IMG/VR virus record: IMGVR_UViG_3300033146_001635
Span: 30,584 to 94,583 of that record
Direction: 5' to 3' (one strand)
DNA from: a virus
DNA: 64,000 bases
Below, piece by piece: positions 4,561 through 53,058 of the stretch. A program made the translations under genes and the position numbers. The notes under the pieces are model-generated. The model was given only the letters and a program-made list of their open reading frames with translations. It was not told the origin of the DNA and did no database searches. Positions within the stretch are counted from its first letter, which is position 1, and every line of letters begins with the position of its first letter.

Positions 4561-5241
4561 CTATTTTTTGATTTTCTTTTGAATCTTTTTTATTTCACTC
4601 TGTATTTTTTCTCTATATTTAGAAGGATTTTTTGTTTTATTAGATAAATCAAGAGATTTTTTCAAAGTTTTAATTTTCATTTGATATGCTTTATTTTGAT
4701 AATTAGTTATACAAGCCTGTTTTTCATCACCAGTTTTACCTTTACAATATTGTGCAGCTTTTGAAAAATAATTTTTATATATTTTATAAGCACCCGCGAT
4801 AGCAATAGCAGCCAAAACAGTCCAACCTATTTCAGTAGAATGATCTTTAATAACATCTAAAATAGAATGAGGATGATTTACATCGGGTACTATTGAATGT
4901 GAATTAACTGTAGGATGTGGTTTATTTTCAACATAATCTTTATGCAAGTTAGTTGGAACAATTGATTTTGTTCCAGTATCAGTTTTATGGAATTTTTTAG
5001 GAATTATACTTTCTGATAATAAAATATCAAAATCATGTTTCAAATCTTCTATTAAATACGTAACTACAGATGGACCAAAAACATCTATACATTCAAATAA
5101 ATTATTTTGTAAAAATAAAGCAGCTTGCCCTAATTCTGCAATTTCTTCATGAATATTTAACCATTCTAAATCTGGATTAGTTTCAAATATATCTTTTTCA
5201 TTTCTATGAATATAATGCACTGATTCATATAAGATGCCCAT
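4561..5241 (-). CDS. TM + Cys-motif paralog (putative internal virion protein)
   Basis: LxE/IxE-rich leader, hydrophobic helix, YFSKAAQYCKGKTGDEKQAC, basic tail. Confidence 0.7.
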   Translation of the reverse strand: MGILYESVHYIHRNEKDIFETNPDLEWLNIHEEIAELGQAALFLQNNLFECIDVFGPSVVTYLIEDLKHDFDILLSESIIPKKFHKTDTGTKSIVPTNLHKDYVENKPHPTVNSHSIVPDVNHPHSILDVIKDHSTEIGWTVLAAIAIAGAYKIYKNYFSKAAQYCKGKTGDEKQACITNYQNKAYQMKIKTLKKSLDLSNKTKNPSKYREKIQSEIKKIQKKIKK

Positions 5242-5253
5242 CAGTAATCTCCT

Positions 5254-6336
5254 TTAAATCCTATTACGTAATTTAATAATTTTTTGTTGAATTTCATGTC
5301 TACATTTTATAGGATTGGATGATTTTTTACACATTCCTATTGATTTTTGTAATACTTTTATTCTTTCATTAATAGCTTTTCTTTTAAATTGTATTATACA
5401 ATCATTCTTTTCTGCACCACTTTTATTACTACAAGCTTGCCCAGCTTTTGAAAAATATCGTTGATATGCTTTATACGATAAATACCCGGCTACACCAACT
5501 AAAGCAGCTACCCCAATTGTTGTTCCGTGATTTTGAACAAATTGATATACTTTTGGAAAATTATCCTGTAATTTATGTGCTAAATTTGTAAAAAATCCAT
5601 CTGTTTCTTTTGGTTCAAGAACATGTGGGGAAGGTTTTGTTTCTATAATTTTAGGAGTATTTTTGATTTTTTTTGGTTCAGATGGTTTTTCTTTACTTGT
5701 ATCATTATTAGAGCCAGTAGCTAATTTATGTAAATTTTTTAAAAAAGTTTTTCTCGATTCGTCACTTGCCTTAACAGATTGTTCCATTGATGAAGATTCT
5801 TTTGGTTTAAAGCCAACTTTTTCAGGACCCTGACCTATATTAAAAGCCTTTTTAAAATTATCCACCATTTTTTTGTTAGATGGATTTTTCAAATCTTTGT
5901 TAACCAAATTTAAATTTTTTATTTTTTTAAACATTCGTTGATTTGATGGTTTTTTCAAATCAGATTTAATCATATTAGTTATATCAGTAGCTATATCTTC
6001 ATTAAGAATATTTTTACTTGTAATACTTTTTAATGATCCAATTTCATGAATAAAATTATATATAACATCATTATCAATAATTTCAGTTAAATTATAACTA
6101 TAATCAATAATATGATTTTTTAATTTGTTTAATAAAATATTCTCATATAATTCTATATTCACATTTTTAGGAGATTTTTTTCCAATTATAGCATAAGACA
6201 ATACATCTGTATCTGATAAATTATTTATAGATTCAGATATAGTAATATTATTTTTAAAATTTTCTTTTAATGCTAATCGAATAAATTCAATTAATAAAGA
6301 ACTTTCAAAAATATTTATATGTTTATTAATAAACAT
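5254..6336 (-). CDS. TM + Cys-motif paralog (putative internal virion protein)
   Basis: N- and C-terminal similarity to 6421..7539; Cx10C and Cx8C. Confidence 0.7.
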   Translation of the reverse strand: MFINKHINIFESSLLIEFIRLALKENFKNNITISESINNLSDTDVLSYAIIGKKSPKNVNIELYENILLNKLKNHIIDYSYNLTEIIDNDVIYNFIHEIGSLKSITSKNILNEDIATDITNMIKSDLKKPSNQRMFKKIKNLNLVNKDLKNPSNKKMVDNFKKAFNIGQGPEKVGFKPKESSSMEQSVKASDESRKTFLKNLHKLATGSNNDTSKEKPSEPKKIKNTPKIIETKPSPHVLEPKETDGFFTNLAHKLQDNFPKVYQFVQNHGTTIGVAALVGVAGYLSYKAYQRYFSKAGQACSNKSGAEKNDCIIQFKRKAINERIKVLQKSIGMCKKSSNPIKCRHEIQQKIIKLRNRI

Positions 6337-6358
6337 TTTTTAACAAACTCCTAAAATA

Positions 6359-6398
6359 ATATGTGACCCCATATTAAAAATAATATGGGGCCACATAT
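6359..6398. terminator. Intrinsic terminator hairpin
   Basis: ATATGTGACCCCATATTA / TAATATGGGGCCACATAT inverted repeat downstream of 6421..7539. Confidence 0.6.
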
Positions 6399-6420
6399 AA
6401 CCAAAATAATAAATTATAAA

Positions 6421-7539
6421 TTAAGCTAATTTAGCTTGTAATTTAGAAATTTTAGCAGTTAAATCGGTACGACATTTGGCGGGATTGGTTGCAGCTTTAC
6501 AACCAGATAATGATTTTTTCAGCATATTAATCTGTTGTTTAACAGCTTGCTTTTTAGCATTGGCAATACAAGCTGATCTTTCAGCCCCAGATTTACCTGC
6601 ACATGATTTAGCTGCCTGTGAAAAATATCGTTGATAAGCTTTATATCCAAGAAAAGCCGCCATAGCAACAAGAGCAGTAACACCAATGGCCTTAGCATGA
6701 CCACCACTATGTTGATTTACAAATTGTGTAAAACCTGACCATGCTTTGGAAATATTTTGACCCACATTACCAGCAGCAGCTCTTAAACGGTCTAACCATC
6801 CTGTTGCAGCCACTTCTTTAGGTGGATTTTTAGCAATCTCATCACCAACACCGCCCATATCTGAATGATTATTTTGTTTAGCAATATCATCACCAACACC
6901 ACCCATATCTGATTTATTTGCAGCGCCAGTTGTGCCTGCTGAATTGACCCCTTTAAATTCACCTTTATAAGAAGGGGTATAAACTTTGTGGGTTCCTGCT
7001 TGAGTTGGATTGTCAGCAGCCGCAGATGCATTAGACTGCCGCATAGCTGCATCAACTGCATTTTTTGAATATGTATGACTAGTGCCACCACTAGAATTAA
7101 CACCACTAAATTCACCAGCTCTAGAATTTGGATATCTATTACCAGAATCCGCACCAGCTAATTTACTATATTTTTCAGTTAAAATCCCTTCCTGAATTAA
7201 AGTCATGGAATCGGAATCAACCATTGATAATCCACCAATTTCATGAATAAAATTAGAAGGTGTATAGCCATCATCAAAAGGTAATTCACTAACATGCTCT
7301 AATACAAAATCTTTAAGATTTGACATTAAGTATGTTTCAGCCAGAGCAGGATTATCAGTAGGACAAGCCTTGCCATACATAGCAAGTGATAATACTTCAC
7401 AATCCTTAGCATCTTCTGTGATATACTTGATAGTTTCAGCTGGTGCATCTTTTTCCTTTAGATTTTCAACCAGAGCCTGACGCATGAAACCCATGAAAAT
7501 AGCACTATCTTTGACATTAATTGATTCATTTAAAAACAT
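6421..7539 (-). CDS. TM + Cys-motif paralog (putative internal virion protein)
   Basis: MFLNES leader, internal repeats, hydrophobic helix, CAGKSGAERSAC and CKAATNPAKC; AGGAG RBS. Confidence 0.7.
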   Translation of the reverse strand: MFLNESINVKDSAIFMGFMRQALVENLKEKDAPAETIKYITEDAKDCEVLSLAMYGKACPTDNPALAETYLMSNLKDFVLEHVSELPFDDGYTPSNFIHEIGGLSMVDSDSMTLIQEGILTEKYSKLAGADSGNRYPNSRAGEFSGVNSSGGTSHTYSKNAVDAAMRQSNASAAADNPTQAGTHKVYTPSYKGEFKGVNSAGTTGAANKSDMGGVGDDIAKQNNHSDMGGVGDEIAKNPPKEVAATGWLDRLRAAAGNVGQNISKAWSGFTQFVNQHSGGHAKAIGVTALVAMAAFLGYKAYQRYFSQAAKSCAGKSGAERSACIANAKKQAVKQQINMLKKSLSGCKAATNPAKCRTDLTAKISKLQAKLA

Positions 7540-7593
7540 TTTAATTTCTCCTTAATATTAATATTAAATAATATTACTTTTTTTTGTTAAAAG

Positions 7594-8313
7594 TTACTTA
7601 TTTATTTTTTTTTTCAAAGCTTTTTCAAGTTCATTTTTAATTCTATCACCACTATAACTACGGCATTTTTCTAAAACCCAATCTTCATGCCAAACATAAT
7701 CAACATTGAACTCAATTTCTGGTTCAATTTTACCAACATTTTCAACATCTGAAGATAATAAATCTTGTGGATCTTTAGTTGGAAAAACACCGGTATAACA
7801 AGCATAATATTCAACAGTTACTCCATCAGGCGCAGTAGTCCAATAATATAATCTAGCAGCATACTGTTTTTTAGAATAACCAGTTCTATCATTACCAGCA
7901 ATTAATTTAGATGATACACCAGTTCTATAATCACGAATACCTTTAACCCATTCATGAAAAATCTGACAAATAGGAAGACCTGAATATTCAACAAATTTTA
8001 TGGAAATAGAATCTCCATAATCAATGCTACCCGGCACTGCCCATTTTGTACCACCCAAACCTGTAAATGAAATTTTATTTAAAGTTCCACCGGGTGGTGT
8101 AACAGATAAACAACTACCAGCTAATAAAGCTTGAACTTCCTTATCTGTTAAATTACCTGGCACTGTATTGGCATCTACCTTAACAATTTCTGGAAGATAA
8201 TCAAACCATATATGATGATATCCTGTTACATATGGCTCTGCAATGCCAACTAACGTACCACCCATATTTCTGGTAGCAACTTGTTTTGTAACATTAGTAA
8301 ATGAATTTAACAT
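7594..8313 (-). CDS. Tail tube protein (gp19-like)
   Basis: Directly downstream of the sheath gene; SVTPPG...PGSIDYGDSISIKFVE...FHEW...YTGVFP...FNVD pattern. Confidence 0.8.
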   Translation of the reverse strand: MLNSFTNVTKQVATRNMGGTLVGIAEPYVTGYHHIWFDYLPEIVKVDANTVPGNLTDKEVQALLAGSCLSVTPPGGTLNKISFTGLGGTKWAVPGSIDYGDSISIKFVEYSGLPICQIFHEWVKGIRDYRTGVSSKLIAGNDRTGYSKKQYAARLYYWTTAPDGVTVEYYACYTGVFPTKDPQDLLSSDVENVGKIEPEIEFNVDYVWHEDWVLEKCRSYSGDRIKNELEKALKKKINK

Positions 8314-8335
8314 AATTTAAATCTCCTCTATATAG

Positions 8336-8365
8336 GAGTGGGTAGGGAATTACCCCTACCCACTC
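8336..8365. terminator. Strong hairpin between sheath and tube genes
   Basis: GAGTGGGTAGGG-6nt-CCCTACCCACTC perfect 12-bp stem. Confidence 0.6.
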
Positions 8366-8376
8366 TTATTTATAAT

Positions 8377-10332
8377 TTATTTGATATAGAAATTCAATTC
8401 AATCTTTTCAGTTACCCGAGTCGGGGTTAATGTAACATTGACATGAAAAGTTTTTGTTTTCTTTTCATAATCACTTGCACCAACTTCAATTGAATAACTA
8501 TATAATCCACGTCTAGATGAAACATCTTCCAGAAAACTGGTAATATCATTACCAACACTATCCCAAGTTGTATTATCATTTAATTCAAAAATATAAAAAC
8601 GACAATATCTTTCAAGAGCTTCCTTACAATATAATACAAGACGAACAATATTCAGATCTTGCATTGCACTTGGTTTAGCTTGGGTTGTTAGTTGCCCCCA
8701 AACAGCATAACCAATATTAAATTTAACAATTGGATTTAACTGTCTAAGATACATTTGATCTCTTTGTTCAAGACGAGGATTAAATCTCAATTCTTGAATA
8801 GAATCAATAACACCTCTTTGGAATCCAGCAATAGCATACCAGACTTCTGATACATTATCATTTCTCGGAGCTAAATATGACATATGATACAGAGGGGATA
8901 CCCAAATATCTGCGCCCGTAAATGCATCAAAAATCTTATTATATCCTTCATATAAAGCACATAAATAAGTATTGAAATTATGATCAGAATTTCTTTTGGC
9001 CATAGCTGTATTGAAATCAGTATTATCACCATTGTCTAATAAGGCAACACAATCACGACGAGTATTAACTAATTGAGAAATGGATTGTTTTACTGATGTT
9101 GGATAACCAGCATCAAAAACAATAGTATAATACATTTTTTCTCTATCAAGTATTTCCTCATCTAAAATACCAGCATATCCTTGTGCTAATAAAGTTTCGC
9201 ACATAGGCATATTAACATTATGGTTTATATCATATATAGAACCATCTGAACCTTTTCTAAGAGCGATTTCACCACCGATAAAAGGTTCTGTTAAATCTGA
9301 TAAATCTTTACGAATATAATATTCAACACTATAATCAGTATCGTCAAAAATAGCTGTATCACCAATCCATTCTTGACTAGCGGTTGATAAATCTCTATCA
9401 TTAAAAATATTTACAGTTTCATTGTCAACACCAGAAGAAGCACCTAACCACCCATATAATCTATTACCACGTTGGTCAATTGCAACAATAGCATATGTCG
9501 AAAGCCCAGTTTCAGCTTGATTAGCCCATTCACTAAAATCTTGTTTAAGATCTGTAATAGAAGCTAATCCTGGTGTTCTTTCTGTAGTGCTTGTACCAAT
9601 TCTATTATCATAATTTTTAACGCATAACTGATACCCCGGTGAATATTCACCATTTGGAAGCATACATTCCGCTCTTAATAAACTTGAATATTTTTCAAGA
9701 ATATCAGTAATAAAAATAGAATCACCAGATGAATCTCTGGCTTCTGGGTTAAATGAAACAGAAAATGATTCAACAATTACTTCATCCCCATCAGCTTGTT
9801 TTTCATATATATCTATAATATATACACCTTCAAACATTGGATTGGCATGTCTAGTTAATCGAACTGAAACTAGATTATAATAATCACCACGACCAATTGG
9901 GTGTAAAATACAAATTGGATATGTATCACCAACTTGTACTAAATTTGATTGAATTTCTGCTTGTGTTGAAATACCACTAATATAAGTAGTTAAAATATCA
10001 GCTGTAGAATCTGTACCATTCCAAACAGCATCAATCCTTAAATTAGAGAATGTTGCATCATCTGGCATAACACGCATAAACCATAATGAACCAGATTCAC
10101 CAAGATAGTTATAAGCATTATATAAACCTTGCCCATAATGTTTCCCAAAAGTGGTTATATTAGGTTCACCCCATTCACTAATTAATTCATTTCGTGACCC
10201 AACAAAAATAGCCTCGTTATCACGACCTTTTTTTGTTAGAGCACACATAAAACCTGTTGTAGCAGGAACTGCTGAAACGTATGTAGAAAGATCAATTATC
10301 TTCGTATATACGCCCGGTGAAATATGAGCCAT
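8377..10332 (-). CDS. Tail sheath protein (gp18-like)
   Basis: SPGVYTKIIDLS N-terminus; VWYAIAGFQRG, LNPIVKF, VWGQLT, LNIVRL, FIFELND motifs. Confidence 0.95.
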   Translation of the reverse strand: MAHISPGVYTKIIDLSTYVSAVPATTGFMCALTKKGRDNEAIFVGSRNELISEWGEPNITTFGKHYGQGLYNAYNYLGESGSLWFMRVMPDDATFSNLRIDAVWNGTDSTADILTTYISGISTQAEIQSNLVQVGDTYPICILHPIGRGDYYNLVSVRLTRHANPMFEGVYIIDIYEKQADGDEVIVESFSVSFNPEARDSSGDSIFITDILEKYSSLLRAECMLPNGEYSPGYQLCVKNYDNRIGTSTTERTPGLASITDLKQDFSEWANQAETGLSTYAIVAIDQRGNRLYGWLGASSGVDNETVNIFNDRDLSTASQEWIGDTAIFDDTDYSVEYYIRKDLSDLTEPFIGGEIALRKGSDGSIYDINHNVNMPMCETLLAQGYAGILDEEILDREKMYYTIVFDAGYPTSVKQSISQLVNTRRDCVALLDNGDNTDFNTAMAKRNSDHNFNTYLCALYEGYNKIFDAFTGADIWVSPLYHMSYLAPRNDNVSEVWYAIAGFQRGVIDSIQELRFNPRLEQRDQMYLRQLNPIVKFNIGYAVWGQLTTQAKPSAMQDLNIVRLVLYCKEALERYCRFYIFELNDNTTWDSVGNDITSFLEDVSSRRGLYSYSIEVGASDYEKKTKTFHVNVTLTPTRVTEKIELNFYIK

Positions 10333-10387
10333 TTCTGACCTCCATTAAATATAAAAACAAAAATTATCTTTTCTATGTATAAAAATT

Positions 10388-11050
10388 TTAGAAAAATATA
10401 TACCAAATAAACAATAATTGGCGTGTATCTACTTTAACAACGGTGGGAAATGTTATACGAGAAAACATATGGAAAGGGCCGGTATGATTAGGTACAGGGC
10501 CATCAACAGCCGTAAATAACGCTGCTTCTGAAATCTGACTTCCATTTGCATCTCCAAGAGAGACTCTTGATACAGTTTTAACAATTAACCACGAATTGTT
10601 GTTATAACCATCTTGTTCAAATTCAATACTTTCAATAGGTTTTTTAAAATAAAATCCATCATGAAAATCACCACATGTAGAATCAATAGCACTAATGGGT
10701 AATTCATTATATAAATCAATATCCGTAGCCACAGGTGATGACGGATTAAAAGGATCACCTACATTAACACCACCTGAGCCGATACCAAACCATGATATAT
10801 ATTCAGCTGGATCTGTTAATACTTGGGTATTCTTTAAATTAAACATTCTCTGGGCAATTAATTCACGCCCCTGATAAACAACTAGATTGTGTTTACCTAA
10901 TAATTTTTCATTACCATTTTCATCTATTTCGAAAATTTCAACCCATCCTTGGGGTCTTCTCGCACCAGATACCTTATTAGAAAATGCATCGACTAAACAA
11001 TTATCACCATAAAAATCTTTGGCAACAATGTTATTTTTTAAATTTTTCAT
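10388..11050 (-). CDS. Putative baseplate/tail structural protein
   Basis: HNLVVYQGRELIA...FGIGSG...ISEAALF...FSRITFP pattern seen in myovirus baseplate/fibre-attachment proteins. Confidence 0.6.
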   Translation of the reverse strand: MKNLKNNIVAKDFYGDNCLVDAFSNKVSGARRPQGWVEIFEIDENGNEKLLGKHNLVVYQGRELIAQRMFNLKNTQVLTDPAEYISWFGIGSGGVNVGDPFNPSSPVATDIDLYNELPISAIDSTCGDFHDGFYFKKPIESIEFEQDGYNNNSWLIVKTVSRVSLGDANGSQISEAALFTAVDGPVPNHTGPFHMFSRITFPTVVKVDTRQLLFIWYIFF

Positions 11051-11088
11051 ATATTTCCGATACCTTTAGTAAAAATACAAAATAATAT

Positions 11089-11103
11089 TCATTTATATGT
11101 TCT
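11089..11103 (-). promoter_or_regulatory. Candidate late promoter RGAACATAWWAWYGA (one of 9 copies)
   Basis: AGAACATATAAATGA here; also at ~4437-4451, 15702-15716, 23416-23430, 27111-27125, 30429-30443, 47980-47994, 48573-48587, 53525-53539, all upstream of minus-strand genes. Confidence 0.7.
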
Positions 11104-11139
11104 CATTTTTTTTAAAAATTTGTAGTTTATATAATCAAT

Positions 11140-12945: not shown

Positions 12946-12964
12946 AATATATTATTATCCCCAT

Positions 12965-13723: not shown

Positions 13724-14082
13724 TATTTTTTATTCTCTTTTCTAGGTAAACATTCTACAACATATTGTGCGCCTTCTGATGATATATTTTCTTGCCCAGG
13801 TTGAACATTTAAATATTCTTCCTGTTTTCTGCCCATACCATCAAAGAAATAAATATCAATAGGAAATTTCATACCAACTGTATGAAATGACATTTCCATT
13901 CACGACGGATATGCAAATATATAAGCTGTATCATATGGAATTGAATCATATTTTAATAAACCTTCGTCAAAATCTTCTAACTCGATAATTTCTATATTAT
14001 CAAATTGTTCAAGAAATTTATCAAAATCTGATACATTTTGTATATGTTTTATATAAGCTTCGAATAAAGAAGTTCGTTTCAT
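13723..14082 (-). pseudogene. DUF192-like gene interrupted by an in-frame TGA (13900-13902)
   Basis: GLLKYDSIPYDTAYIFAYPS*MEMSFHTVGMKFPIDIYFFD...AQYVVE is one continuous frame resembling DUF192. Confidence 0.65.
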
Positions 14083-14083
14083 A

Positions 14084-14956
14084 TTATCCTCTTTTTATTT
14101 TCATAATTTTCTCATCTATCTTCTTTTTAAAAGTATTTGGATCTGTTGTTTTTGTAGCCATTGATTTTGCTCTATTTAATTGACTTATTTGAGCCTGTTT
14201 AGCTTTGTTCACATCCCCTGTTTTGTTTTTCCACATTTTATAAGCTGCATAAGCTAAAGCTGATGCCGCAGCAACACCTAATCCTATTTTTAAATTTTGC
14301 CCATGATTATGCATAAAAAAATCTTTAAAATTATGCATTGCTGTTTGAAATCCACCACTATCAGCTTTGGGATTTTGTTTTGGTTCATCATCTAATTTAC
14401 TCATATCAATTCTGGTTATATTATCAGGTCTGGCTGCATCTTTCATAATTTTTTCATATTCATCTCGTGTTACCGGTGTACCATCTGGGTGTCTAGGAAT
14501 ATTATGTGAACCTTTTTGTGGTGTAAAATATGTTTCCCTATTTTTTGGTGTAAAATATGTTTCTTTTTTTGCAGGTGTAAAATATGTATTTCTATTTTTT
14601 GGTGTAAAATATGTTTCTTTTTTTGCAGGTGTAAAATATGTATTTCTATTTTTTGGTGTAAAAAAAGTTTCACGTTCATATAAATATTTTTTATAACTAT
14701 TACTATCAGATTCTATTATAAAATTTAAATTTTCTTGCATATAATCAGAATATTTAGATATTAAACATTCGACATACAATTGCTTGTTTTTAATTTGTTC
14801 TGGAATTGCTTTACCAGTCATATATAATGATATAACATCACCATCTGACATTTCTAACATAATTTTGTTTATAAGTGTATCATTTAATTTTTCTTTTAAA
14901 ATATTACATAAATTCAATCTCAATTCTGATATAAAATACATAGATATGGTATCCAT
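14084..14956 (-). CDS. TM paralog without Cys pairs, with internal 9-aa repeats
   Basis: N-terminal similarity to 5254/6421 (SDGDVISLYMTGK), hydrophobic helix, KTTDPNTFKKKI tail. Confidence 0.7.
   Translation of the reverse strand: MDTISMYFISELRLNLCNILKEKLNDTLINKIMLEMSDGDVISLYMTGKAIPEQIKNKQLYVECLISKYSDYMQENLNFIIESDSNSYKKYLYERETFFTPKNRNTYFTPAKKETYFTPKNRNTYFTPAKKETYFTPKNRETYFTPQKGSHNIPRHPDGTPVTRDEYEKIMKDAARPDNITRIDMSKLDDEPKQNPKADSGGFQTAMHNFKDFFMHNHGQNLKIGLGVAAASALAYAAYKMWKNKTGDVNKAKQAQISQLNRAKSMATKTTDPNTFKKKIDEKIMKIKRG
14510..14671 (-). repeat. Coding tandem repeat, 6 x 27 bp ((E/N)T(Y/F)FTPxxx)
   Basis: GGTGTAAAATATGT core repeated every 27 bp. Confidence 0.9.
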
Positions 14957-14972
14957 AATAAAATCCTTATAT

Positions 14973-15668
14973 TTAAATTGCCAAAACTTTTGTAATTTCT
15001 TCTATAGATTTACAATATGCTGCTATAAGAGCAGCTTCATTAATTGGATCTAAAAAATATTCCAGCTCATTTGAATTATCAATAAAAAACGGTTCTGCAA
15101 TAACACAAGGAGCCTTTGTATATTTTAGTAAATATCCACCTCTATCTTCAACAGTCAACGGAACAATACCTCTATCCCTAGATTCAATTGAATCTGGTTT
15201 AATTGATAAAAGATTTTTTTGAAGTATTGTTGCCATTGTTAAACCCAACCACGATTTATAATAATATAAAACCTCGCACCCTTTAGCTTTGGTATTAAAA
15301 GCATTACAATGTAAACTAATAATAAAATCTGGATTCAATTCATTAATATCATTTGGCAATGATTTATATGTCCGACGATAAATTCTTTGAATTATAATAT
15401 CACTATCATAAAATCTTTTTTCTATTCCCAAAGCAATTTTTTCATTAAATTCGAATTCATATATGTCATGATCTATATTATATGCACCGGGTGATGTTTT
15501 TTTATGACCAATTACCAAAGCGCAAGTTATCAATTCTTTATCTGTTTGATTTTTTGAATCGACCATTTTTTTCATTTCCTCTTGTATAGCAACTGTTTTT
15601 ATTTTTTCTTGCCACCACAATGATGTAAAATTATTAAAAAGTGTTTTAATAAAACTAAACATATTCAA
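14973..15668 (-). CDS. N-acetylmuramoyl-L-alanine amidase (Amidase_3), probable endolysin
   Basis: IGH...E...ISLHCNA...VIAEPFFIDN Zn-amidase motifs. Confidence 0.9.
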   Translation of the reverse strand: MNMFSFIKTLFNNFTSLWWQEKIKTVAIQEEMKKMVDSKNQTDKELITCALVIGHKKTSPGAYNIDHDIYEFEFNEKIALGIEKRFYDSDIIIQRIYRRTYKSLPNDINELNPDFIISLHCNAFNTKAKGCEVLYYYKSWLGLTMATILQKNLLSIKPDSIESRDRGIVPLTVEDRGGYLLKYTKAPCVIAEPFFIDNSNELEYFLDPINEAALIAAYCKSIEEITKVLAI

Positions 15669-15797
15669 CGTACCTCGATTAATTTAATAAATTATATTAC
15701 TTCAATAATATGTTCCCATATTTATAATAAAATACGAAGATTATATATATTATATATTAGAATAAAATAACTTTTAATTTTACACAGGAGGAATGAA

Positions 15798-16451: not shown

Positions 16452-16464
16452 TTTCATCATCGTC

Positions 16465-16962: not shown

Positions 16963-17012
16963 AAATTTCCTCTCTATATTACATTGAAAAAAATATAGAG
17001 AGGAAATTTTTT
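16963..17012. terminator. Bidirectional intrinsic terminator
   Basis: AAAATTTCCTCTCTATATT / AATATAGAGAGGAAATTTT between convergent genes. Confidence 0.8.
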
Positions 17013-17801
17013 TCAACTTAATCCAAATAAAGCAATTGTATTAAAAGACATATGTAATAAAACGGCAACAACATAACCAAGAAACGAATGATCGATTTTA
17101 ATAAATTCAGTTTGTATTTTTGCCAAACCCATATGAAGTATAACCCAAATTATTCGAGCAATTAATAAACAAACTGTTAAATTACCATGAATAACCCAAT
17201 TCATTATATAATAAAAAAATTCAGCAGATGCAAATATAAATGTATATGTCAAACCAGCTTTAATATTGGATTCTAAAAACCAATGTTTAGCATATTCTTC
17301 TATTATGGGACCTATTAATAACACAGCTATATATGTAGCCAAAGGAGGATTTTTGGTTAAAATTGTTATCACTACAAAAGCTAAAGTATTTAAATAAAAT
17401 ATTAAAACGAATACTGCAATTGATGCACCAAAAGTATCTGCAAATGTATTAAATGATTCACCAACAGCATCATCTAAATTTTTAAAAATTTTATTTTTAA
17501 TATTTTCAGAAAATTTTGATGGTGGTATTTTTTGTTTATACGCTTTTTTTAAATCAATTGATATAGTTTTACCAATTTTTTTAGCTTGTAAAGAAATCCT
17601 ATTTATATTAATATTATTCTTTTTTAAATAAGATTTTATAAGATTATTATATTGTTTATATTCTGTAATTGCTTTTTTAACATTAATTTCTTTAATTATT
17701 TTTTTTATTTTATCTGGTAATTCAATTGAATCTTCTATTTTATTTAAAAAATCAAACTCTAATAAATCTATTTCATTTTTATTAATAAATATAAAACTCA
17801 T
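17013..17801 (-). CDS. PrsW/CPBP-family intramembrane metalloprotease with soluble N-terminal extension
   Basis: GPIIEEYAK, FASAE, LHMG, LLHMSFN motifs in a multi-TM domain. Confidence 0.7.
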   Translation of the reverse strand: MSFIFINKNEIDLLEFDFLNKIEDSIELPDKIKKIIKEINVKKAITEYKQYNNLIKSYLKKNNININRISLQAKKIGKTISIDLKKAYKQKIPPSKFSENIKNKIFKNLDDAVGESFNTFADTFGASIAVFVLIFYLNTLAFVVITILTKNPPLATYIAVLLIGPIIEEYAKHWFLESNIKAGLTYTFIFASAEFFYYIMNWVIHGNLTVCLLIARIIWVILHMGLAKIQTEFIKIDHSFLGYVVAVLLHMSFNTIALFGLS

Positions 17802-17808
17802 TATTAAT

Positions 17809-18279
17809 CTACCTTATATATAACTTTTTTAAAATTTGAATTTTTTCATTATTATTTTTAATATTTTCTTTTAAATCATTAATTTTTTTATCAATTTGTT
17901 TTGTATTTTTACCTTTTTTTTGATATTCCTTTTTTATTTGTAAAAGTATTTTTATTTTTTTATTAGTAAAATCAATTTTGCTTTGTAAAATACATATATC
18001 TCTATCATTTGATATAGTAAAAATACCACATTTTTTCTGGTGTTCACTAAATGCTGCTAAAGCTATCCTCCAAGCAACCCATATATAAGGTTGAAAAATA
18101 AAAAAACCTAATATATTACCCGCCACACCTGCCTCTTGAATATATTTATCAAGATTTAGTCTCTTACATAACAAATCTATTTTAGAATCAGGTAAATTTT
18201 TAATTAATTCTGGTTTAATTTTTTTTGAATATGATTCACATAAATTTATTAAAATAAATCTTTTTCTATCAATATCCAT
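17809..18279 (-). CDS. TM + Cys-motif paralog
   Basis: YIQE, hydrophobic segment, CGIFTISNDRDIC, basic coiled coil. Confidence 0.65.
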   Translation of the reverse strand: MDIDRKRFILINLCESYSKKIKPELIKNLPDSKIDLLCKRLNLDKYIQEAGVAGNILGFFIFQPYIWVAWRIALAAFSEHQKKCGIFTISNDRDICILQSKIDFTNKKIKILLQIKKEYQKKGKNTKQIDKKINDLKENIKNNNEKIQILKKLYIR

Positions 18280-18293
18280 TTTATAAAATTCCC

Positions 18294-18824
18294 TTATAGG
18301 TCATATTCATATTCGTTAATATATTTTTGAGTTATTAATTGATAAGTAACCAAAATGAAAAACCAAAAAAGAGGTATTAATAAAATACCTTTAATTGTAA
18401 TAATTAATAATAATGTACCCATAAAAGCTATAATAAAAAGAGCTATAACTGATAAAATTAATTTACCTTCACTAAAACGGTTTTTTATATCATATTGTGA
18501 TAATTCTTTTTTAATATCATTGCCAATTGATTTAATAAATTTTTTAGCATTATTCATATTAGCATCTGATAATTTTTCTATTTTTATTTTATTTTTATAT
18601 TTGTTAACAATTTTATTAATTATTTTATCTATTGTTTGTTGATTAAATCCATTTCTTTTTAATTTATCAATAGCTTTATCTTTATTTGATAACAATTTAT
18701 TTTTCATATCTACCATTGACATTGAAGCTAATTTATTTTGAAATGATGATATTAAATTTTCATGAAATAATATATTTACATCTTCTGATAAATAAATATA
18801 TTCTTCAATTAAGTATATATTCAT
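18294..18824 (-). CDS. Membrane protein with (I/L)xE-rich leader
   Basis: YLIEE, YLSE, LFHE leader; two C-terminal TM helices. Confidence 0.65.
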   Translation of the reverse strand: MNIYLIEEYIYLSEDVNILFHENLISSFQNKLASMSMVDMKNKLLSNKDKAIDKLKRNGFNQQTIDKIINKIVNKYKNKIKIEKLSDANMNNAKKFIKSIGNDIKKELSQYDIKNRFSEGKLILSVIALFIIAFMGTLLLIITIKGILLIPLFWFFILVTYQLITQKYINEYEYDL

Positions 18825-47223: not shown

Positions 47224-47943
47224 TTAATAATAATATTTCACAACTATAGCATCACCTATAGTCAAATTAACATTAGAAGTAAAAGTAACTCTTACCCCTG
47301 ATATAGTATAATCATAAGTAGAACCTTCCATTAATACAACACCATTTAAAATAACGAAATTATGCATTGACAAATTAATAGTTTGGCTTAAATCAACATA
47401 TCCATTTGAAACAATTGCTGAATCCACTATATAATTATCTATTTGTTTATTAGCTGAAAATCCACCTGATGAAACACCTTTACTTCCAATGTATTTATAA
47501 AAAGAAATTTGAGGTGGCATATAAGAAGGGACATTTGAATAGAATGTTAACACACCAGCTTCAGTATCAACAATCCAATCTCCCATTCCAAATGGGATTT
47601 GATCTCCATGTGAATTTTTTAAAAAATAATTATATGAACCATCTCCAAAATTAAAAGGTATCGCATCTTTTAAATTATCATGATAAAATGCATTATTCAA
47701 ACCAGGTACTGGAATCAAAGATAAATCTTCAAAGTATTGAACAACTCCATCTGTTTGACCATCTGATAAAGATGGTGCTGGTAATGGAATTAAATCTGAT
47801 TGGTTCCATATTTGTTCATTATGAAATACCGCCACTCTCCCTAGATATGCTTCCTCAAAAAATTGTTTAATCAAAGTTGTTTCAGCTACACCTTGTAATT
47901 TTTTGAAAAGCTTGCTAGCTTTTTGGTCGGTATTTAATGCCAT
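47224..47943 (-). CDS. Virion structural protein
   Basis: DWIVDTEAGVLTF...FYKYIG; C-terminal VILNGV...DYTISG domain shared with the 1158-aa protein. Confidence 0.65.
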   Translation of the reverse strand: MALNTDQKASKLFKKLQGVAETTLIKQFFEEAYLGRVAVFHNEQIWNQSDLIPLPAPSLSDGQTDGVVQYFEDLSLIPVPGLNNAFYHDNLKDAIPFNFGDGSYNYFLKNSHGDQIPFGMGDWIVDTEAGVLTFYSNVPSYMPPQISFYKYIGSKGVSSGGFSANKQIDNYIVDSAIVSNGYVDLSQTINLSMHNFVILNGVVLMEGSTYDYTISGVRVTFTSNVNLTIGDAIVVKYYY

Positions 47944-48003
47944 AATTTCTTTCCGCTATTTAAAAAAATTTAAATTATATCAATAATATGTTCCCATAAA
48001 TTC

Positions 48004-48543
48004 CTAAATTGAGATTTTAACTTCTTCCTTTTTTGTTAATGCTAATAATGCTTTCAATGCATCATATAGACACCACGCTCCTATCACAATATCAAGAGCA
48101 ATCATATTAGTATTTTCTTCTTGAATATCAGATACAAGAAAATTCATCATTACTAAAAATAAAATACCATTGAATAAAAGATTTATTTTGTGAGTAGAAG
48201 AATCTTTTTCTAAATTATATTTTTTAGAAACATGATCTTTTGCAATTTTCATTAACAAATCTTTTTGTTGGATCCTATTGGATGTTTTATATTTTTCAGA
48301 TTCAAATTTTTCACCAATTGCTTTAGAATCAGATAATGCATTTTTCATAACTTGTTTAACTTTGTTGGCACCAATTAATTTAGAAACAAACGGAACAAAT
48401 TTATCTTTTACTTTTTTTATGGCCCTTTTTGGATCCTTTAAAAATGACATTTTAAAAAGTTTTTCTTTATATGAATCTGATTCATATAAATGTTGTTGAA
48501 TAGCATAAGTTTCTAATAATTCATTTCTATAATCATAGTTCAT
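48004..48543 (-). CDS. Membrane protein with (I/L)xE leader
   Basis: LLE, LYE leader; two C-terminal TMs; likely ATG 48543. Confidence 0.65.
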   Translation of the reverse strand: MNYDYRNELLETYAIQQHLYESDSYKEKLFKMSFLKDPKRAIKKVKDKFVPFVSKLIGANKVKQVMKNALSDSKAIGEKFESEKYKTSNRIQQKDLLMKIAKDHVSKKYNLEKDSSTHKINLLFNGILFLVMMNFLVSDIQEENTNMIALDIVIGAWCLYDALKALLALTKKEEVKISI

Positions 48544-48633
48544 TTCAAACCCCCTATAACAAAGATTATTATTCAATTATATGTTCTTTATTTTATTTTA
48601 ATATCATCAATTCTATTATATATATATTAATTA

Positions 48634-48805
48634 ATGATACCACAAAAATTAAGTTTTGTGGTATCATCTCCACAAAGGAGAGAACGCTAGCTGGTGCGTT
48701 AAATAAAATTCGGTATTCGGTATCAATCTCCGAATTAAAAAACAAGATTGACCAGAATCAAGTCAGTTTGCAGCTCTGACTTAAAACAAAAGCTGCTTTT
48801 TTTTT
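48634..48805 (+). ncRNA. Candidate structured RNA: three hairpins, two tandem H-type pseudoknots, U-tract
   Basis: Pairings read directly from sequence (see findings); no ORF; no known family recognised. Confidence 0.55.
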
Positions 48806-48933
48806 AAGATATAAATACAACTATATATATTATTTTTTGATTAATAAATTTATCTTTAATAAAAGGAGGTTTAACTGAATACTTTAAATCTGTGATTGTT
48901 TTTTATTTAACTTATTAAAAAGGATTTGAGATT

Positions 48934-49257
48934 ATGGAAAAATTTAGTAACACACTTGTTGTAGAAGTATTCGATGCAGAAAATGAATACGATTATATCT
49001 TCACGAATATTGTTGATGATAATAAAGAATTTCAAAAACTTTCGAGGGATGAACAAAAAGAAATAATTGTTGATAAAATTGAAGCAATTAATGCACAGGG
49101 ATGTTTTATCGAAGTTGAAAAAAATACTCGCTTTGATAAAATGAGAATAGGTAACAGTCCCCTTGAAAGTGATTATATTGAAATTCAAGAAGGGGATATT
49201 ATTTTTTATTCGTCAGCATCAATTCAAAGAATATTTGCACCATCCAATAAAAAATAA
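48934..49257 (+). CDS. Hypothetical acidic protein
   Basis: 107-aa ORF. Confidence 0.65.
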   Translation: MEKFSNTLVVEVFDAENEYDYIFTNIVDDNKEFQKLSRDEQKEIIVDKIEAINAQGCFIEVEKNTRFDKMRIGNSPLESDYIEIQEGDIIFYSSASIQRIFAPSNKK

Positions 49258-49283
49258 CTTTGTATCAACAACGGAGGCTTTTT

Positions 49284-50051
49284 ATGAGTATAAGAAAAGT
49301 TGAATACAAATCTGACGAATGGCAATATATAGTAGAACATTATAACATTGATACCTCTGTAACAAAAACAAATGATATTAATGTTTATATACACAAATTG
49401 TATAAAGATAAAGATAAAGATAAAGATTTGACTAATATCTATCTTTTGAAAAAAACAAAAGAATATCATGAATTATTTTATATTGGATATAATGACAAAA
49501 AACTTAAAAAAATATTTCATGCCCAACATATATCAGACGATAAAAATTCTGGATTCTTTTCAGGATTAAGTAAATATGTAAAAATAAAACATATGAATAA
49601 ATGGGCGTTGATTGAAATAAATCCTATGATGCCCACTGACATAATATATCCCATAACAAATTGGTATGATGATATAAAAAATATGGGATGTCTTGTTTCC
49701 ATGAAAAATAATATTATCGTTGGTGAAACTAATGGATATATTGTTTTTGCCAATATATATAATCAATTAACCGAACGATATATTTATTCATCTACATATA
49801 ATACAATTCATGATTGCCGTGGATTAATATATGATGATGAATATTTTATTATTTTAAAAACATTAAATAAATCACCTGTTAAATATAGAATATATACTAA
49901 ATATGGTTATTTATTAGTTGATAAATATTTTGAACATATTCAAATCAATCATAACAAATTTATAATAAGAGAAGATGGTAAATCATTTTATTATTGGGTT
50001 GATAGTAATTATAACATCCACCAAGAATCAGCTCTAAAAAATAATAAGTAA
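49284..50051 (+). CDS. Hypothetical protein
   Basis: ATG 49284 after GGAGG. Confidence 0.65.
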   Translation: MSIRKVEYKSDEWQYIVEHYNIDTSVTKTNDINVYIHKLYKDKDKDKDLTNIYLLKKTKEYHELFYIGYNDKKLKKIFHAQHISDDKNSGFFSGLSKYVKIKHMNKWALIEINPMMPTDIIYPITNWYDDIKNMGCLVSMKNNIIVGETNGYIVFANIYNQLTERYIYSSTYNTIHDCRGLIYDDEYFIILKTLNKSPVKYRIYTKYGYLLVDKYFEHIQINHNKFIIREDGKSFYYWVDSNYNIHQESALKNNK

Positions 50052-50062
50052 ATTATCCCCAA

Positions 50063-50287
50063 ATGAGTATTGGTATGAATTTATTAGATTTTAAAACATT
50101 TGAAAATGAATTTAAAAAAATAACACCACATGAATATTGTTGTTCATGTGGTAAAAAATTAAATAATAATAACAAAAGTAATAAATTTATAAAACCTATA
50201 AACAAATCAATACCCCAACATTGTTGTATTCAATGTGAGAAAGATGTTGATGAAAATGGATTTTTTGTTGAGGAAATTTTAACTTAA
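50063..50287 (+). CDS. Small Zn-finger-like protein
   Basis: CCSCG...CCIQC. Confidence 0.55.
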   Translation: MSIGMNLLDFKTFENEFKKITPHEYCCSCGKKLNNNNKSNKFIKPINKSIPQHCCIQCEKDVDENGFFVEEILT

Positions 50288-50308
50288 ACTTTTGAGGAAT
50301 TTATTATT

Positions 50309-50593
50309 ATGAAAGGTTTTCCCATAACTCTGAAAATTACCCTGATTGATGGAATATCTACTGAGATCCAATGGAAACTACCACAATATGTTTATGTAGA
50401 TAAACAATACAAACAAGAAAGATACATTAGAAATGCAATGATTAAAATAGCCTCTGATGGTTTCACAGTTAGTGAGCCAGATAATGATTTCCATGATATT
50501 CTAAGATATTATCCACCTAACCAAATTAAAAATATTGATTTTGATTTTACTGAATTTTATGCATCAAAATCTAAAGAATCTTTAGAAGAATAG
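50309..50593 (+). CDS. Hypothetical protein
   Basis: 94 aa, GAGG RBS. Confidence 0.6.
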   Translation: MKGFPITLKITLIDGISTEIQWKLPQYVYVDKQYKQERYIRNAMIKIASDGFTVSEPDNDFHDILRYYPPNQIKNIDFDFTEFYASKSKESLEE

Positions 50594-50607
50594 GATAATA
50601 AAATATC

Positions 50608-50811
50608 ATGCCTAATATGGATTATTGTAGATTTCAAAATACTTTTTATGATTTACAAGAATGTTATAAACACATGGATGATACAGATTTATCATCATCA
50701 GAAAAAAATTTTCGAAGAAAAATTATTGAATTATCATCTGCGATTGTCAATGAATATATAGACGAACTGGATGAACCTTTTGAAAGGGGTGATTTTGATA
50801 ATGAATGTTAA
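50608..50811 (+). CDS. Small hypothetical protein (NMDYCRFQNT motif)
   Basis: 67 aa; motif type common in phage small ORFs. Confidence 0.6.
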   Translation: MPNMDYCRFQNTFYDLQECYKHMDDTDLSSSEKNFRRKIIELSSAIVNEYIDELDEPFERGDFDNEC

Positions 50812-51145
50812 TGATTATATAAACGAATCAGCTAGAACCATGGCTCCCAATATATACCATGAAAGTGTAAATGTAGAAACTTTACATGGTATTATTGGAA
50901 TATCTGGTGAAGCTGGTGAATTAATAGATGCTGCTAAAAAAGCATTATTCTATGGACATGATTTAGATAAGAAAAATATTAAGGAAGAATTGGGTGATAT
51001 ACTCTGGTATATTGCCGCAGTTATTCGAAGTGAAGGATGGACTTTTGAAGAGATCATGGAAGAAAATATTGATAAATTAAAAAAGAGATATCCAGAACAA
51101 TTCACATCTGAATTGGCTAAAGAACGTCTGGATAAAAAAGGTTAA
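50801..51145 (+). CDS. MazG-like nucleotide pyrophosphohydrolase
   Basis: GISGEAGELID..KK...EELGDILWY...NIDKLKKRYP. Confidence 0.9.
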   Translation: MNVNDYINESARTMAPNIYHESVNVETLHGIIGISGEAGELIDAAKKALFYGHDLDKKNIKEELGDILWYIAAVIRSEGWTFEEIMEENIDKLKKRYPEQFTSELAKERLDKKG

Positions 51146-51150
51146 AATAA

Positions 51151-51200
51151 AAAATCTCTCGCCTATTAGTATGCACTAAATTAGGCGAGAGATTTTTTTT
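51151..51200. terminator. Bidirectional intrinsic terminator
   Basis: AAAATCTCTCGCCTA / TAGGCGAGAGATTTT between convergent genes. Confidence 0.8.
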
Positions 51201-51203
51201 TGT

Positions 51204-51854
51204 TTATAAATCTTCTTTTGTAATACCAACACCATCAATATCAAATTTTTTATTTAAAGGATCTGGATCACCATTATAATTCATAAGAACATCTTCTAAT
51301 TTTTTATTTATAAAATCAATCTTATTAGCTAATTCTTTTTTTGGATCTACGTTATCACATGGTTGCGGATTTAAATCTACAGGATCAGACATAAATTCAT
51401 CTTCGGTTAATGCTTTTATTTCAGCCGGTTTTAAACTTCTATATAACAATTTAATACCATTATAGATTGCTTGTAATACTATCCGTGTCATTATATATAA
51501 AGGTGCTATTAGAAAATATCTAATTAAAACTAATATAACAGCTATAACAATTCCTATTTTAACACCTCTCCAAAAATCATCTTTAATACTATTTTGTAAA
51601 ATACTTTTCACACCATTAAATAATTCATCACCTGATTTAGCATTTTTCATTAAAGACATTATTTTCGATTTATTCTTATCAGCTACTTTATATATCTCTT
51701 TAACATTTATCTGTTTATCAGATAAATATTTTTCCATTTTACCTTTCATTTTTTGAAGTTTATTTTTATCTACTTCGACATCATCTTTTTTTGTTTCTGT
51801 TAAAATAGGTTTGTGAATCAATTGTTCTTTTAATAATTGTTTATAATCAGCCAT
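51204..51854 (-). CDS. Membrane protein with (I/L)xE leader
   Basis: LLKE, ILTE leader; central TM segment. Confidence 0.65.
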   Translation of the reverse strand: MADYKQLLKEQLIHKPILTETKKDDVEVDKNKLQKMKGKMEKYLSDKQINVKEIYKVADKNKSKIMSLMKNAKSGDELFNGVKSILQNSIKDDFWRGVKIGIVIAVILVLIRYFLIAPLYIMTRIVLQAIYNGIKLLYRSLKPAEIKALTEDEFMSDPVDLNPQPCDNVDPKKELANKIDFINKKLEDVLMNYNGDPDPLNKKFDIDGVGITKEDL

Positions 51855-51866
51855 AATAATATTCCT

Positions 51867-52301
51867 TTATAATTTAATTTTCTTTTGAATTTTATACATT
51901 TTATTTTTTAATATTGTTTTACATTTTTTTGGATTATCAGTTCTATTACACAATGACATTTTCTGTTTTATATAATGAACTTGTTTTTCATGCATTTTCC
52001 TAGTTAATTCATCAATACATTTTTTCTTGTCAATACCAATAAAATGTCCACAATGTTTTTCTAATTCTTTTGCTTCTTCTTTAATTTTTTTATAATGTTT
52101 AGCTATCAAAGCAATTATAAAAGAAATCAACAAAATAACAAATTCATTTAAATAAACTTTCTCATAAGTTCTTTCAATATAATCATCTGAAAATTCATTA
52201 AGAAATTTATCAGCATTTTTATAAACCTCTTCTATTTCAGATGATTGACAAAGTTCATATAAAAAAATTCTTTTATCACCTATCGATGTGTGCATAAACA
52301 A
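51867..52301 (-). CDS. TM + Cys-motif paralog
   Basis: YLNE then FVILLISFIIALIA; CGHFIGIDKKKC; CNRTDNPKKC. Confidence 0.7.
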   Translation of the reverse strand: MFMHTSIGDKRIFLYELCQSSEIEEVYKNADKFLNEFSDDYIERTYEKVYLNEFVILLISFIIALIAKHYKKIKEEAKELEKHCGHFIGIDKKKCIDELTRKMHEKQVHYIKQKMSLCNRTDNPKKCKTILKNKMYKIQKKIKL

Positions 52302-52615
52302 CCTTCTTCAATTTGATTTAAAGATTCTTTTAACATTGCTAATTGATAAGGTTTCATTCTTACATATTTATTATTTATATTAAAATCTATTTCATATTCA
52401 GTATGTTCAGATAAATCGTCTATGTTAGAAATAATACTATCAATATCATGTATGATAGTATTAAAATGTTCTTTTAAAAATATTACTTTATTATCATAAT
52501 CATCTTCCAAAATATATTGCCCCATTGAATAATCTTCACGGGTTCCATCAGAAAAATCAATAAACAATTCTGGACAACAACCCTGTCCCCTACATAATGT
52601 CATAATCTTTTTCAT
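52280..52615 (-). CDS. Hypothetical protein (CRGQGCCP)
   Basis: 111 aa; AAGGAG RBS. Confidence 0.6.
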   Translation of the reverse strand: MKKIMTLCRGQGCCPELFIDFSDGTREDYSMGQYILEDDYDNKVIFLKEHFNTIIHDIDSIISNIDDLSEHTEYEIDFNINNKYVRMKPYQLAMLKESLNQIEEGCLCTHR

Positions 52616-53058
52616 CTATTTTTACTCCTTTCTAACTCAGCTATTTCTTTTTGAAGATTTTCAATTTTACGTTTATATTCCTCTATTTGATTACTATAAT
52701 ATTGCCCTTCACTTTTATTTCCTTGTTGAAATGCTTTTACAGCCCTTCCTCGTTTCAATCCTATCTTATAATGTAAATCTTGAATAGATTCTTTTTTTAT
52801 ACATATTTTCTTTTCGATAGGTGTAAGAGATGGACTATAACATCTATTATTTTTAGCATTTGATGCATATACATGTCTTGCATGAACTGCATCTTTTATA
52901 TTACTTACACCATGTTTAATAGATGAAATAAATCCTTCATATATAATATCAATCTGCTTGTCACTAAATTTATCCAAATATGTTGGTTGAAACTTATCAG
53001 AAAATTCCAATAGGTTTTTTAATAATTCCTTTTTGTTATGTTTCATTGTCATCCCCAT
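52612..53058 (-). CDS. Divergent Cys-motif paralog
   Basis: LLE, IYE leader; CYSPSLTPIEKKIC; coiled-coil tail. Confidence 0.6.
   Translation of the reverse strand: MGMTMKHNKKELLKNLLEFSDKFQPTYLDKFSDKQIDIIYEGFISSIKHGVSNIKDAVHARHVYASNAKNNRCYSPSLTPIEKKICIKKESIQDLHYKIGLKRGRAVKAFQQGNKSEGQYYSNQIEEYKRKIENLQKEIAELERSKNR

Follow-up and report, generated by a model that had tools for sequence, protein, structure and literature searches.

Eight proteins encoded on the minus strand of a 64,000-nucleotide (nt) stretch of viral DNA (hereafter the window; bases 30584–94583 of the 94.6-kb IMG/VR viral contig IMGVR_UViG_3300033146_001635) form a dispersed and expanded family of paralogues. They share a C-terminal unit of about 90 residues, in which an Ala/Gly-rich, marginally hydrophobic helix is followed by two basic amphipathic helices and in which cysteines are kept or lost in pairs. 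The family is phage-only and undescribed in every library searched, and the likely founding copy belongs to the core of the contractile-tail module in a large clade of uncultured jumbo myoviruses. We propose, with a probability of about 0.4, that its members are virion-borne, tail-associated proteins that would become membrane-active under particular conditions.

Family membership and the shared unit

A first-pass annotation of the window, made from the letters alone, had grouped nine open reading frames (ORFs) into this family. All nine are present on the minus strand and are named here by their lower coordinate. Eight stand as members, seven of them clear homologues (4561, 5254, 6421, 14084, 41254, 41704 and 51867) and one divergent (17809), and the ninth (52612) does not.

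6421..7539, minus strand: long member 1, 372 amino acids (aa); first gene after the tail tube gene; both Cys pairs
About aa 1–120 (nt 7180–7539), minus strand: N-domain of 6421, a long form
Between N-domain and module, minus strand: spacer of 6421, Gly/Ser/Asn-rich, with two copies of SDMGGVGD[DE]IAK
aa 281–372 (nt 6424–6699), minus strand: hydrophobic helix and stapled module of 6421
5254..6336, minus strand: long member 2, 360 aa; N-domain at aa 1–126 (nt 5959–6336)
aa 272–360 (nt 5257–5523), minus strand: module of 5254; Cys 302/313 and 336/345 around two turns in the AlphaFold2 (AF2) model
4561..5241, minus strand: member 3, 226 aa; partial N-domain; pair 1 kept, pair 2 replaced by S...Y
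14084..14956, minus strand: long member, 290 aa; just downstream of the amidase gene; N-domain and TYFTP-repeat spacer
17809..18279, minus strand: divergent short member, 156 aa; pair 1 as C-x11-C, pair 2 lost; adjoins the PrsW-like gene
41254..41679, minus strand: short member, 141 aa; paralogue of 41704 (35% identity); pair 2 widened to C-x11-C
41704..42228, minus strand: short member, 174 aa; acidic N-tail, helix, module with both pairs, C-tail AGF..QPSY
51867..52301, minus strand: short member, 144 aa; most hydrophobic helix of the set (Kyte-Doolittle 2.43); both Cys pairs
52612..53058, minus strand: non-member ORF; no hydrophobic helix; profile score no better than shuffles

Composition-corrected BLASTP within the window links the seven clear homologues, with E values of 1e-45 to about 3e-7 for the main links. 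The three genes 4561, 5254 and 6421 match one another at 1e-17 to 1e-45, 51867 matches these three at 1e-9 and 41254 and 41704 at 1e-5 to 1e-7, and 14084 matches 5254 and 6421 (3e-7 and 1e-4). A hidden Markov model (HMM) of the C-terminal part of the seven scores them at 74–140 bits; in leave-one-out runs they still score 17–93 bits versus a maximum of 11 bits for shuffled controls (300 composition-preserving shuffles per ORF). The divergent 17809 reached 16.4 bits in the same leave-one-out design (shuffle maximum 7.5) and matched an HMM of 160 family sequences at E = 3.4e-5; its Cys pair 1 aligns in register. A related contig encodes an orthologue (L063:7897-8289; phmmer 7e-14) that clearly matches the family (6e-13) and has both Cys pairs, including a canonical C-x8-C with the NP turn, and on this comparison of sequences we take 17809 to be a true but divergent member that has lost pair 2. 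Membership of 52612 is not supported: it scored 2.6 bits in the profile test, a value equalled or bettered by 30 of 300 shuffles, with profile E values of 0.58–1.8, and neither a hydrophobic helix in the protein nor a bridging orthologue among relatives was found. Its likeness to the family is compositional only. No additional member was found in the 30 kb of the contig beyond the window.

That there is no family at all, and that Lys-rich helical composition beside a hydrophobic stretch accounts for the likeness, can practically be dismissed. The proteins are indeed Lys-rich, HMMER bias terms amount to 2–15 bits, and the explanation does hold for 52612. It fails, however, on the leave-one-out scores, on the hundreds of full-length homologues, and on the Cys columns, NP turn and YK.YKR.FSKAAKAC block, which stand in register and are near-invariant over the 160 sequences. 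An expanded and dispersed paralogue family is thus borne out by BLASTP, profiles and leave-one-out runs alike, and purely compositional likeness, which the first-pass annotation had itself named as one way in which it could be wrong, is ruled out by the shuffle comparison for eight of the nine ORFs.

The consensus of the unit, taken from the alignment of 160 sequences, begins with the helix [ILV]-G-[AG]-A-A-L-A-A-L-A-x-Y-[AG]-[AG]-Y, directly followed by an aromatic/basic stretch (K-x-Y-K-R-F-F-S-K-A-A-K-A-C) and, after this first Cys, by the loop G-x-S-G-x-x-K-x-x-C. A middle amphipathic basic helix of about 22 residues has a Cys at its end and leads into a second turn, x-K-x-K-[ND]-P-x-K-C, and the last basic helix, which usually forms the C-terminus of the protein. 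Of the 155 best homologues, 113 have their Cys spaced as C-x10-C-x22-C-x8-C, and a further 25 have a first-pair spacing of x8 (21 sequences) or x9 (4 sequences). The motif C-x4-G-x5-C, reported earlier for six ORFs, is present in the sequence as described; the second pair, noted for several, is found in 5254, 6421 and 51867 and additionally in 41704 (as C-x5-C) and 41254 (as C-x11-C), and the reported absence of pair 2 from 4561 and of both pairs from 14084 is likewise correct.

Cys residues had been said to disappear in pairs, as expected of disulfides, and the larger sample agrees: all four Cys are present in 146 of the 160 sequences, pair 1 without pair 2 in 10 and none in four, and no sequence has one or three of the four. 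C1 and C4, or C2 and C3, are never lost together. Pair 2 is missing in separate lineages, namely the 4561 type, the second tube-adjacent copy of L009 (and P0008), 17809 and the 14084 type, the last of which lacks pair 1 as well. The state of 4561 (pair 1 only) is the same in its L009 orthologue, and that of 14084, whose module lacks the first Cys loop and both pairs, is kept in L009 and L050. These patterns support two independent local staples, C1–C2 and C3–C4, and we infer that each pair forms a local disulfide.

The AF2 model of 5254, with a predicted local distance difference test score (pLDDT) of about 80–90 in the C-terminal part, places helices 276–302, 307–338 and 342–359 in an antiparallel three-helix bundle with the hydrophobic helix as helix 1. 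C302/C313 and C336/C345 each span a helix–helix turn in this model, and the helix between C2 and C3, one at either end of it, is about 30 residues long. The structural neighbours found for residues 272–360 are generic three-helix bundles only (Z 3.8–4.6). The loose likeness to twin-CX9C hairpins that had been suggested does not hold, as each pair brackets a turn (x10, x9 or x8 in the first, x8 in the second) and is not a CX9C within each helix of a hairpin. CHCH proteins are similar in being small helical units with two Cys pairs that are lost or kept together. They differ, however, in consisting of a single hairpin with a CX9C in each helix and disulfides that cross-link both helices (C1–C4, C2–C3), whereas the family has C-x8-10-C ... 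x22 ... C-x8-C in a three-helix zigzag and no homology to them.

The hydrophobicity of helix 1 is marginal, with a median Kyte-Doolittle maximum (19-residue window) of 1.43 and values of at least 1.6 in 32% of the homologues. Of 155 sequences, 133 carry more positive charge on the C-terminal than on the N-terminal flank of this helix, and the part that follows it has a median net charge of +15. The first residue of the helix lies at positions 17–284, with 48–113 residues downstream. An acidic leader, claimed for the family as a whole, is present in some members and absent from others, the net charge before the helix ranging from -12 to +10. The C-termini of 41254 and 41704 have an extra tail, [IV]-A-G-[FI]-x(0,2)-Q-P-S-[FY], which the other members lack.

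In the long forms (6421, 5254 and 14084) the unit comes after a helical N-domain, about 120 aa long, and a hypervariable spacer, and the short forms consist of the unit without an N-domain. Modelled alone (123 sequences), the N-domain is all-helical with a pLDDT of 85.6 and a predicted template modelling score of 0.76; no match to it was found above Z 3.4 in the PDB (VIA) or below a Foldseek E value of 0.7 in BFVD, and the model thus suggests a novel fold with no recognizable relative. Searches of BFVD (Foldseek) and the PDB (VIA) with the full-length model gave generic helical-bundle likeness only (Z up to 4.8), and the ESM Atlas returned no informative neighbour. A pairing of Cys within the N-domain (C47/C59) was considered and dropped, as it proved inconsistent. 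No signal peptide precedes the long-form N-parts. The spacer is disordered or of low complexity and varies freely, being Gly/Ser/Asn-rich with SDMG repeats in 6421, rich in TYFTP repeats in 14084, and Ala/Lys-rich and histone-tail-like over up to about 250 residues in some homologues. At about aa 95–150 of 14084 the repeats are tandem units of about 11 aa built on TYFTP (NRNTYFTPAKKETYFTPK...).

Distribution and position in the tail operon

Relatives, which the first-pass annotation had proposed to look for by profile, proved numerous: among 1.84 billion cluster representatives (50% identity clusters) a profile search matched 1573 at E <= 1e-3, of which 921 also passed E <= 1e-10 and 174 passed E <= 1e-30. 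Nearly all homologues align from the N-domain to the C-terminus, with lengths of 113–659 aa (141–372 aa in the window). Five ORFs, P0135 (659 aa), P0047, P0111, P0058 and P0098, contain two or three full copies of helix plus module in tandem, and some such ORFs may be fusions of adjacent paralogues. Searches of Pfam, PHROGs and NCBIfam with all nine ORFs gave nothing significant, PHROGs returned one stray match only for 123 homologues, and Pfam revealed no extra domain in the longest or odd homologues. No relative was found in a sequence profile search of the PDB or in a pattern scan of 185k prokaryote genomes (GTDB), and tblastn of the 6421 protein against GenBank phages gave no match. All family genes are now annotated as hypothetical, and the family merits a profile of its own in phage annotation libraries.

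The position of three members directly behind the tail tube gene, already pointed out in the first-pass annotation, holds for 6421, 5254 and 4561. The gene order on the minus strand is sheath, tube, 6421, 5254, 4561, PF12322/PHROG 150 hub, gp25-like and gp6-like wedge, and the tube-adjacent family genes have strong ribosome-binding sites and short intergenic gaps. The genes around the members are as follows.

8377..10332, minus strand: tail sheath gene
7594..8313, minus strand: tail tube gene; product distantly related to AR9/S6/phiR1-37-type jumbo-phage tube proteins
3582..4370, minus strand: PF12322 T4_baseplate / PHROG 150 baseplate-hub gene, directly after the family trio
2952..3374, minus strand: gp25-like baseplate wedge / sheath initiator gene
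2–2287, minus strand: gp6-like wedge gene, after the gp25-like gene
14973..15668, minus strand: Amidase_3 lysin gene, directly upstream of member 14084
17013..17801, minus strand: PrsW-family intramembrane protease-like gene, directly downstream of member 17809

A scan of IMG/VR yielded 37 loci. In about 30 distinct contigs, the interval from the tube gene to the PF12322 hub gene always contains one to four family copies, in the order tube, family genes, hub, gp25, p218, gp6. Many contigs have a single copy in this slot, others two or three, and one has four. The single tube–hub copy is likely to be the founder, because it occupies the slot alone in many contigs, and the remaining copies would then be expansions. 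Larger relatives carry six or seven dispersed copies, with short forms in varied neighbourhoods. In L028, L039 and L041/L042 an extra family copy lies between the gp25-like gene and the next baseplate gene (p218); expansion has thus taken place inside the baseplate operon too.

The contig is 26% complete according to CheckV, implying a genome of about 300 kb or more, and the GC content of the window is 21–32%. The sheath and tube proteins are 24–32% identical to their counterparts in AR9, S6-like Staphylococcus phages and phiR1-37. Because these identities are so low, the source phage is best placed, judging from its proteins, as an uncultured and distant relative of jumbo myoviruses of the AR9/S6/phiR1-37 type.

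Possible functions of the family

Homology gives no function, and the functional argument therefore rests on gene context and physical chemistry. A gene that keeps its place between tube and hub in a late tail operon normally encodes a tail component or a tail assembly factor. Cys conserved in pairs at turns are best read as disulfides and would thus need an oxidising place. With the C-terminal flank so positive, insertion from the cytoplasm of the producer cell would leave the Cys module in a reducing compartment, and exporting the module would oppose the positive-inside rule; should the staples be disulfides, the virion remains as the place where they could be oxidised. Tandem forms with two or three modules, each with its own helix, also fit a permanent transmembrane anchor poorly, because identical modules would come to lie on opposite sides of the membrane. 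Taken together with the marginal helix and the operon slot, these points favour a unit that would be soluble or oligomeric at rest in the virion and membrane-active on release. The first-pass annotation, whose description of the family is correct for the most part, had suggested virion-packaged, membrane-inserting proteins; both packaging and insertion are plausible. We found no thiol oxidase or DsbA in five partial phage genomes, in a search whose Erv1 part gave no match in control genomes either.

At rest, each protein would form a stapled three-helix bundle, or an oligomer of such bundles, that hides the hydrophobic helix. It would become part of the virion together with the tail, at or within the lumen of tube and hub, and be expelled on contraction along with a tape-measure-like protein of 2045 aa. 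Release would expose the hydrophobic helix, which could then engage the inner membrane of the host, and the strongly basic helices would bind anionic lipid or DNA, so that a conduit for genome delivery would be formed or stabilized with the help of the family. The extra paralogues would be diversified accessory versions of the module.

The 2045-aa ORF (G000:C1:20704-26841, plus strand; L053:6705-12842) lies outside the window and has no family match. It is Lys-rich, has hydrophobic segments of the Gly-zipper type and, at its C-terminus, a duplicated domain of about 190 aa, and by these sequence features it looks like the tape measure of the phage; a 317-aa gene lies directly upstream. Given this separate ORF, the family would be accessory and not the ruler. 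We rejected a tape-measure role for the family itself: its members are too short and too variable in length, the freely varying spacer could not set tail length, and no member matches a Pfam or PHROG tape measure. An SDMG..G..IA peptide, found four times in the 2045-aa ORF, is also present in two copies in the 6421 spacer; this hints weakly at a partner or location in common, and we attach little weight to it.

The transmembrane segment and helical bundle of the T4 tape measure gp29 provide the closest analogy. This segment is hidden in a hydrophobic patch of an amphipathic helical bundle, gp29 is retained in the tube in the absence of lipid, and a role as the inner-membrane pore has been proposed by the authors; predicted transmembrane helices are common in tape measures (bioRxiv 10.64898/2026.03.06.709160). 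Like gp29, which is proposed to be expelled to the inner membrane, the family is encoded with tail and hub genes and is all-helical, with a hydrophobic helix shielded by amphipathic ones. The two differ in that no relation of sequence or fold was detected and in that the family has a distinct N-domain as well as two Cys staples. The type of protein that the family most resembles, helical, hydrophobic, encoded in a tail operon and active at the membrane, is already known; the family itself is undescribed, its N-domain has no recognizable fold, and the strictly paired double staple of the simple three-helix C-unit is unusual.

Several observations count against a tail-associated, membrane-active role in the virion. 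With a giant tape-measure-like protein encoded separately, a delivery role may be redundant. The SDMG and GPG motifs are absent from the tape-measure orthologues of two relatives (G001 and G006), for which reason a co-variation of spacer motifs with the tape measure was dropped. The nearest cultured jumbo phages, phiR1-37 and Staphylococcus phage Machias, have as the last gene of this operon the one that matches the tube gene, and no counterpart of the family was found in them. Several paralogues sit beside non-tail genes (amidase, PrsW-like protease, small membrane proteins), and the low hydrophobicity of the helix makes membrane insertion uncertain. The disulfides are read from Cys conservation alone. 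The N-part tolerates a single free Cys, the total number of Cys being odd in 57 of 155 sequences, so that an extracellular location of the whole protein is not indicated. Finally, the clade is uncultured, and the virion location is one that we infer.

It is unlikely that the proteins instead belong to the inner membrane of the producer cell late in infection, held by a true anchor as a tether for tail or hub assembly, or acting in lysis timing or superinfection exclusion, perhaps with the PrsW-like protease processing or releasing them. Every member does have a single hydrophobic helix that adjoins an interfacial stretch of aromatic and basic residues, 14084 comes after the amidase gene, and 17809 abuts the genes of the PrsW-like protease and of small membrane proteins. 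Small N-out/C-in proteins of the Pf3 coat type resemble the short forms, with their acidic N-tail, helix and basic C-part, and disulfides conserved in phage proteins usually lie in the periplasm, the T4 holin T and the Rz spanins being examples. Holins, i-spanins and Pf3-coat-like proteins share with the family the single hydrophobic helix and basic C-flank, and some family copies adjoin a lysin gene. In the long forms, however, the helix is far from the N-terminus, a folded N-part of 130–280 aa would have to be exported without a signal peptide, and tandem modules landing on both sides of the membrane misfit a fixed topology. A membrane location in the producer cell would also leave the Cys pairs unexplained in a reducing cytoplasm, only 32% of the helices reach the Kyte-Doolittle value of 1.6, the amidase-adjacent copy is absent in a relative (L018), and the PrsW neighbourhood is synteny shared by relatives. 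An Rz-type i-spanin was rejected, as there is no N-terminal signal-anchor with a long coiled coil and the C-part is too short to span the periplasm; 4561 had given a weak Rz-like match to PHROG 1152 that was not significant (E = 0.054).

Two further roles seem quite improbable to us, each to about the same degree. As non-virion assembly chaperones, the proteins would use the N-domain or helix to coat hydrophobic segments of the tape measure and to recruit tube protein. The slot after the tube gene, which the family occupies in about 30 contigs, is the classical position of tail assembly chaperones (G/GT in lambda, E/E' in P2); the N-domain, all-helical and about 120 aa long, is a small helical domain as in these chaperones, the tape-measure-like gene has moved elsewhere and left the slot, and 6421 shares its peptide motif with the tape-measure-like protein of this genome. 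Known chaperones, however, have no counterpart of a hydrophobic helix with a stapled basic module, paired conserved Cys would be needless in the cytoplasm, members match no Phage_TAC family (Pfam, PHROG) or fold, and the N-domain is missing from the short paralogues. Each paralogue is a gene of its own, with no frameshift pair evident, slippery sites not having been analysed, and the 317-aa gene upstream of the tape-measure-like gene could be the real chaperone. As internal head proteins ejected with the DNA, on the other hand, the family members would carry the N-domain as a capsid-targeting prodomain, cut by a prohead protease at [ILV]-x-E, with the basic spacer and module staying with the DNA. 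The N-domain does close with two conserved [ILV]-x-E motifs (E100 in 97 and E117 in 107 of 123 sequences, with an aliphatic residue at -2) directly before the disordered spacer, which in some homologues is long, Ala/Lys-rich and histone-tail-like, and the C-part is highly basic. Processed families of paralogues are known among the internal proteins of T4 and the inner-body proteins of phiKZ; multi-copy and fast-evolving, with a conserved N-part, candidate [ILV]-x-E sites and basic bodies, they resemble the family. Against this, the core copy lies in the tail operon and not in a head module, there is no homology to either group, the short paralogues lack the N-domain, and the conserved Glu could be merely structural; a PF03420 T4-type prohead protease was not found in five partial genomes, the control genomes being equally without a match.

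Returning to a virion-borne role with conditional membrane activity, its furthest consequence is one that we hold to be possible but doubtful: the family would represent a new class of virion-delivered, disulfide-stapled membrane-insertion modules that, together with the tape measure, build a conduit or remodel the host membrane around the incoming genome, with paralogues and hypervariable spacers tuning them to hosts or envelope states. How contractile phages cross the inner membrane is still being worked out, the part of the T4 tape measure in a pore having only just been proposed. If the proteins are virion-borne and membrane-active, they would constitute a separate, modular and expandable penetration component beside the tape measure; if they act in the producer cell instead, they would point to membrane-tethered tail assembly. 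The Cys pattern gives a clear structural prediction, and the N-domain is confidently modelled without a known fold.

Neighbouring genes and minor features

The PrsW-like protein (17013–17801) matches PF13367 at E = 3.9e-6 and contains the motif EEYAKHW. Its gene adjoins the small membrane-protein genes 18294–18824 and 17809, and a weak PrsW counterpart lies near family genes in two relatives (G006 and L024). Co-occurrence of a PrsW-family gene as a functional link was dropped, as this synteny is shared among relatives and not independent. Four small ORFs on the late (minus) strand, 18294–18824, 48004–48576, 51204–51854 and 53036–53347, encode a charged N-part followed by at least one hydrophobic helix; membership of the family was not detectable for any of these four.

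GC-rich perfect hairpins stand out in the AT-rich DNA at about 8320–8370, 6340–6420 and 42230–42280, just 3' of the sheath gene, of the first family gene (6421) and of a 1158-aa fibre-like gene respectively. Member 41704 comes after this fibre-like gene and its hairpin. The hairpins of the late operons look like attenuators or terminators that set steps in expression.

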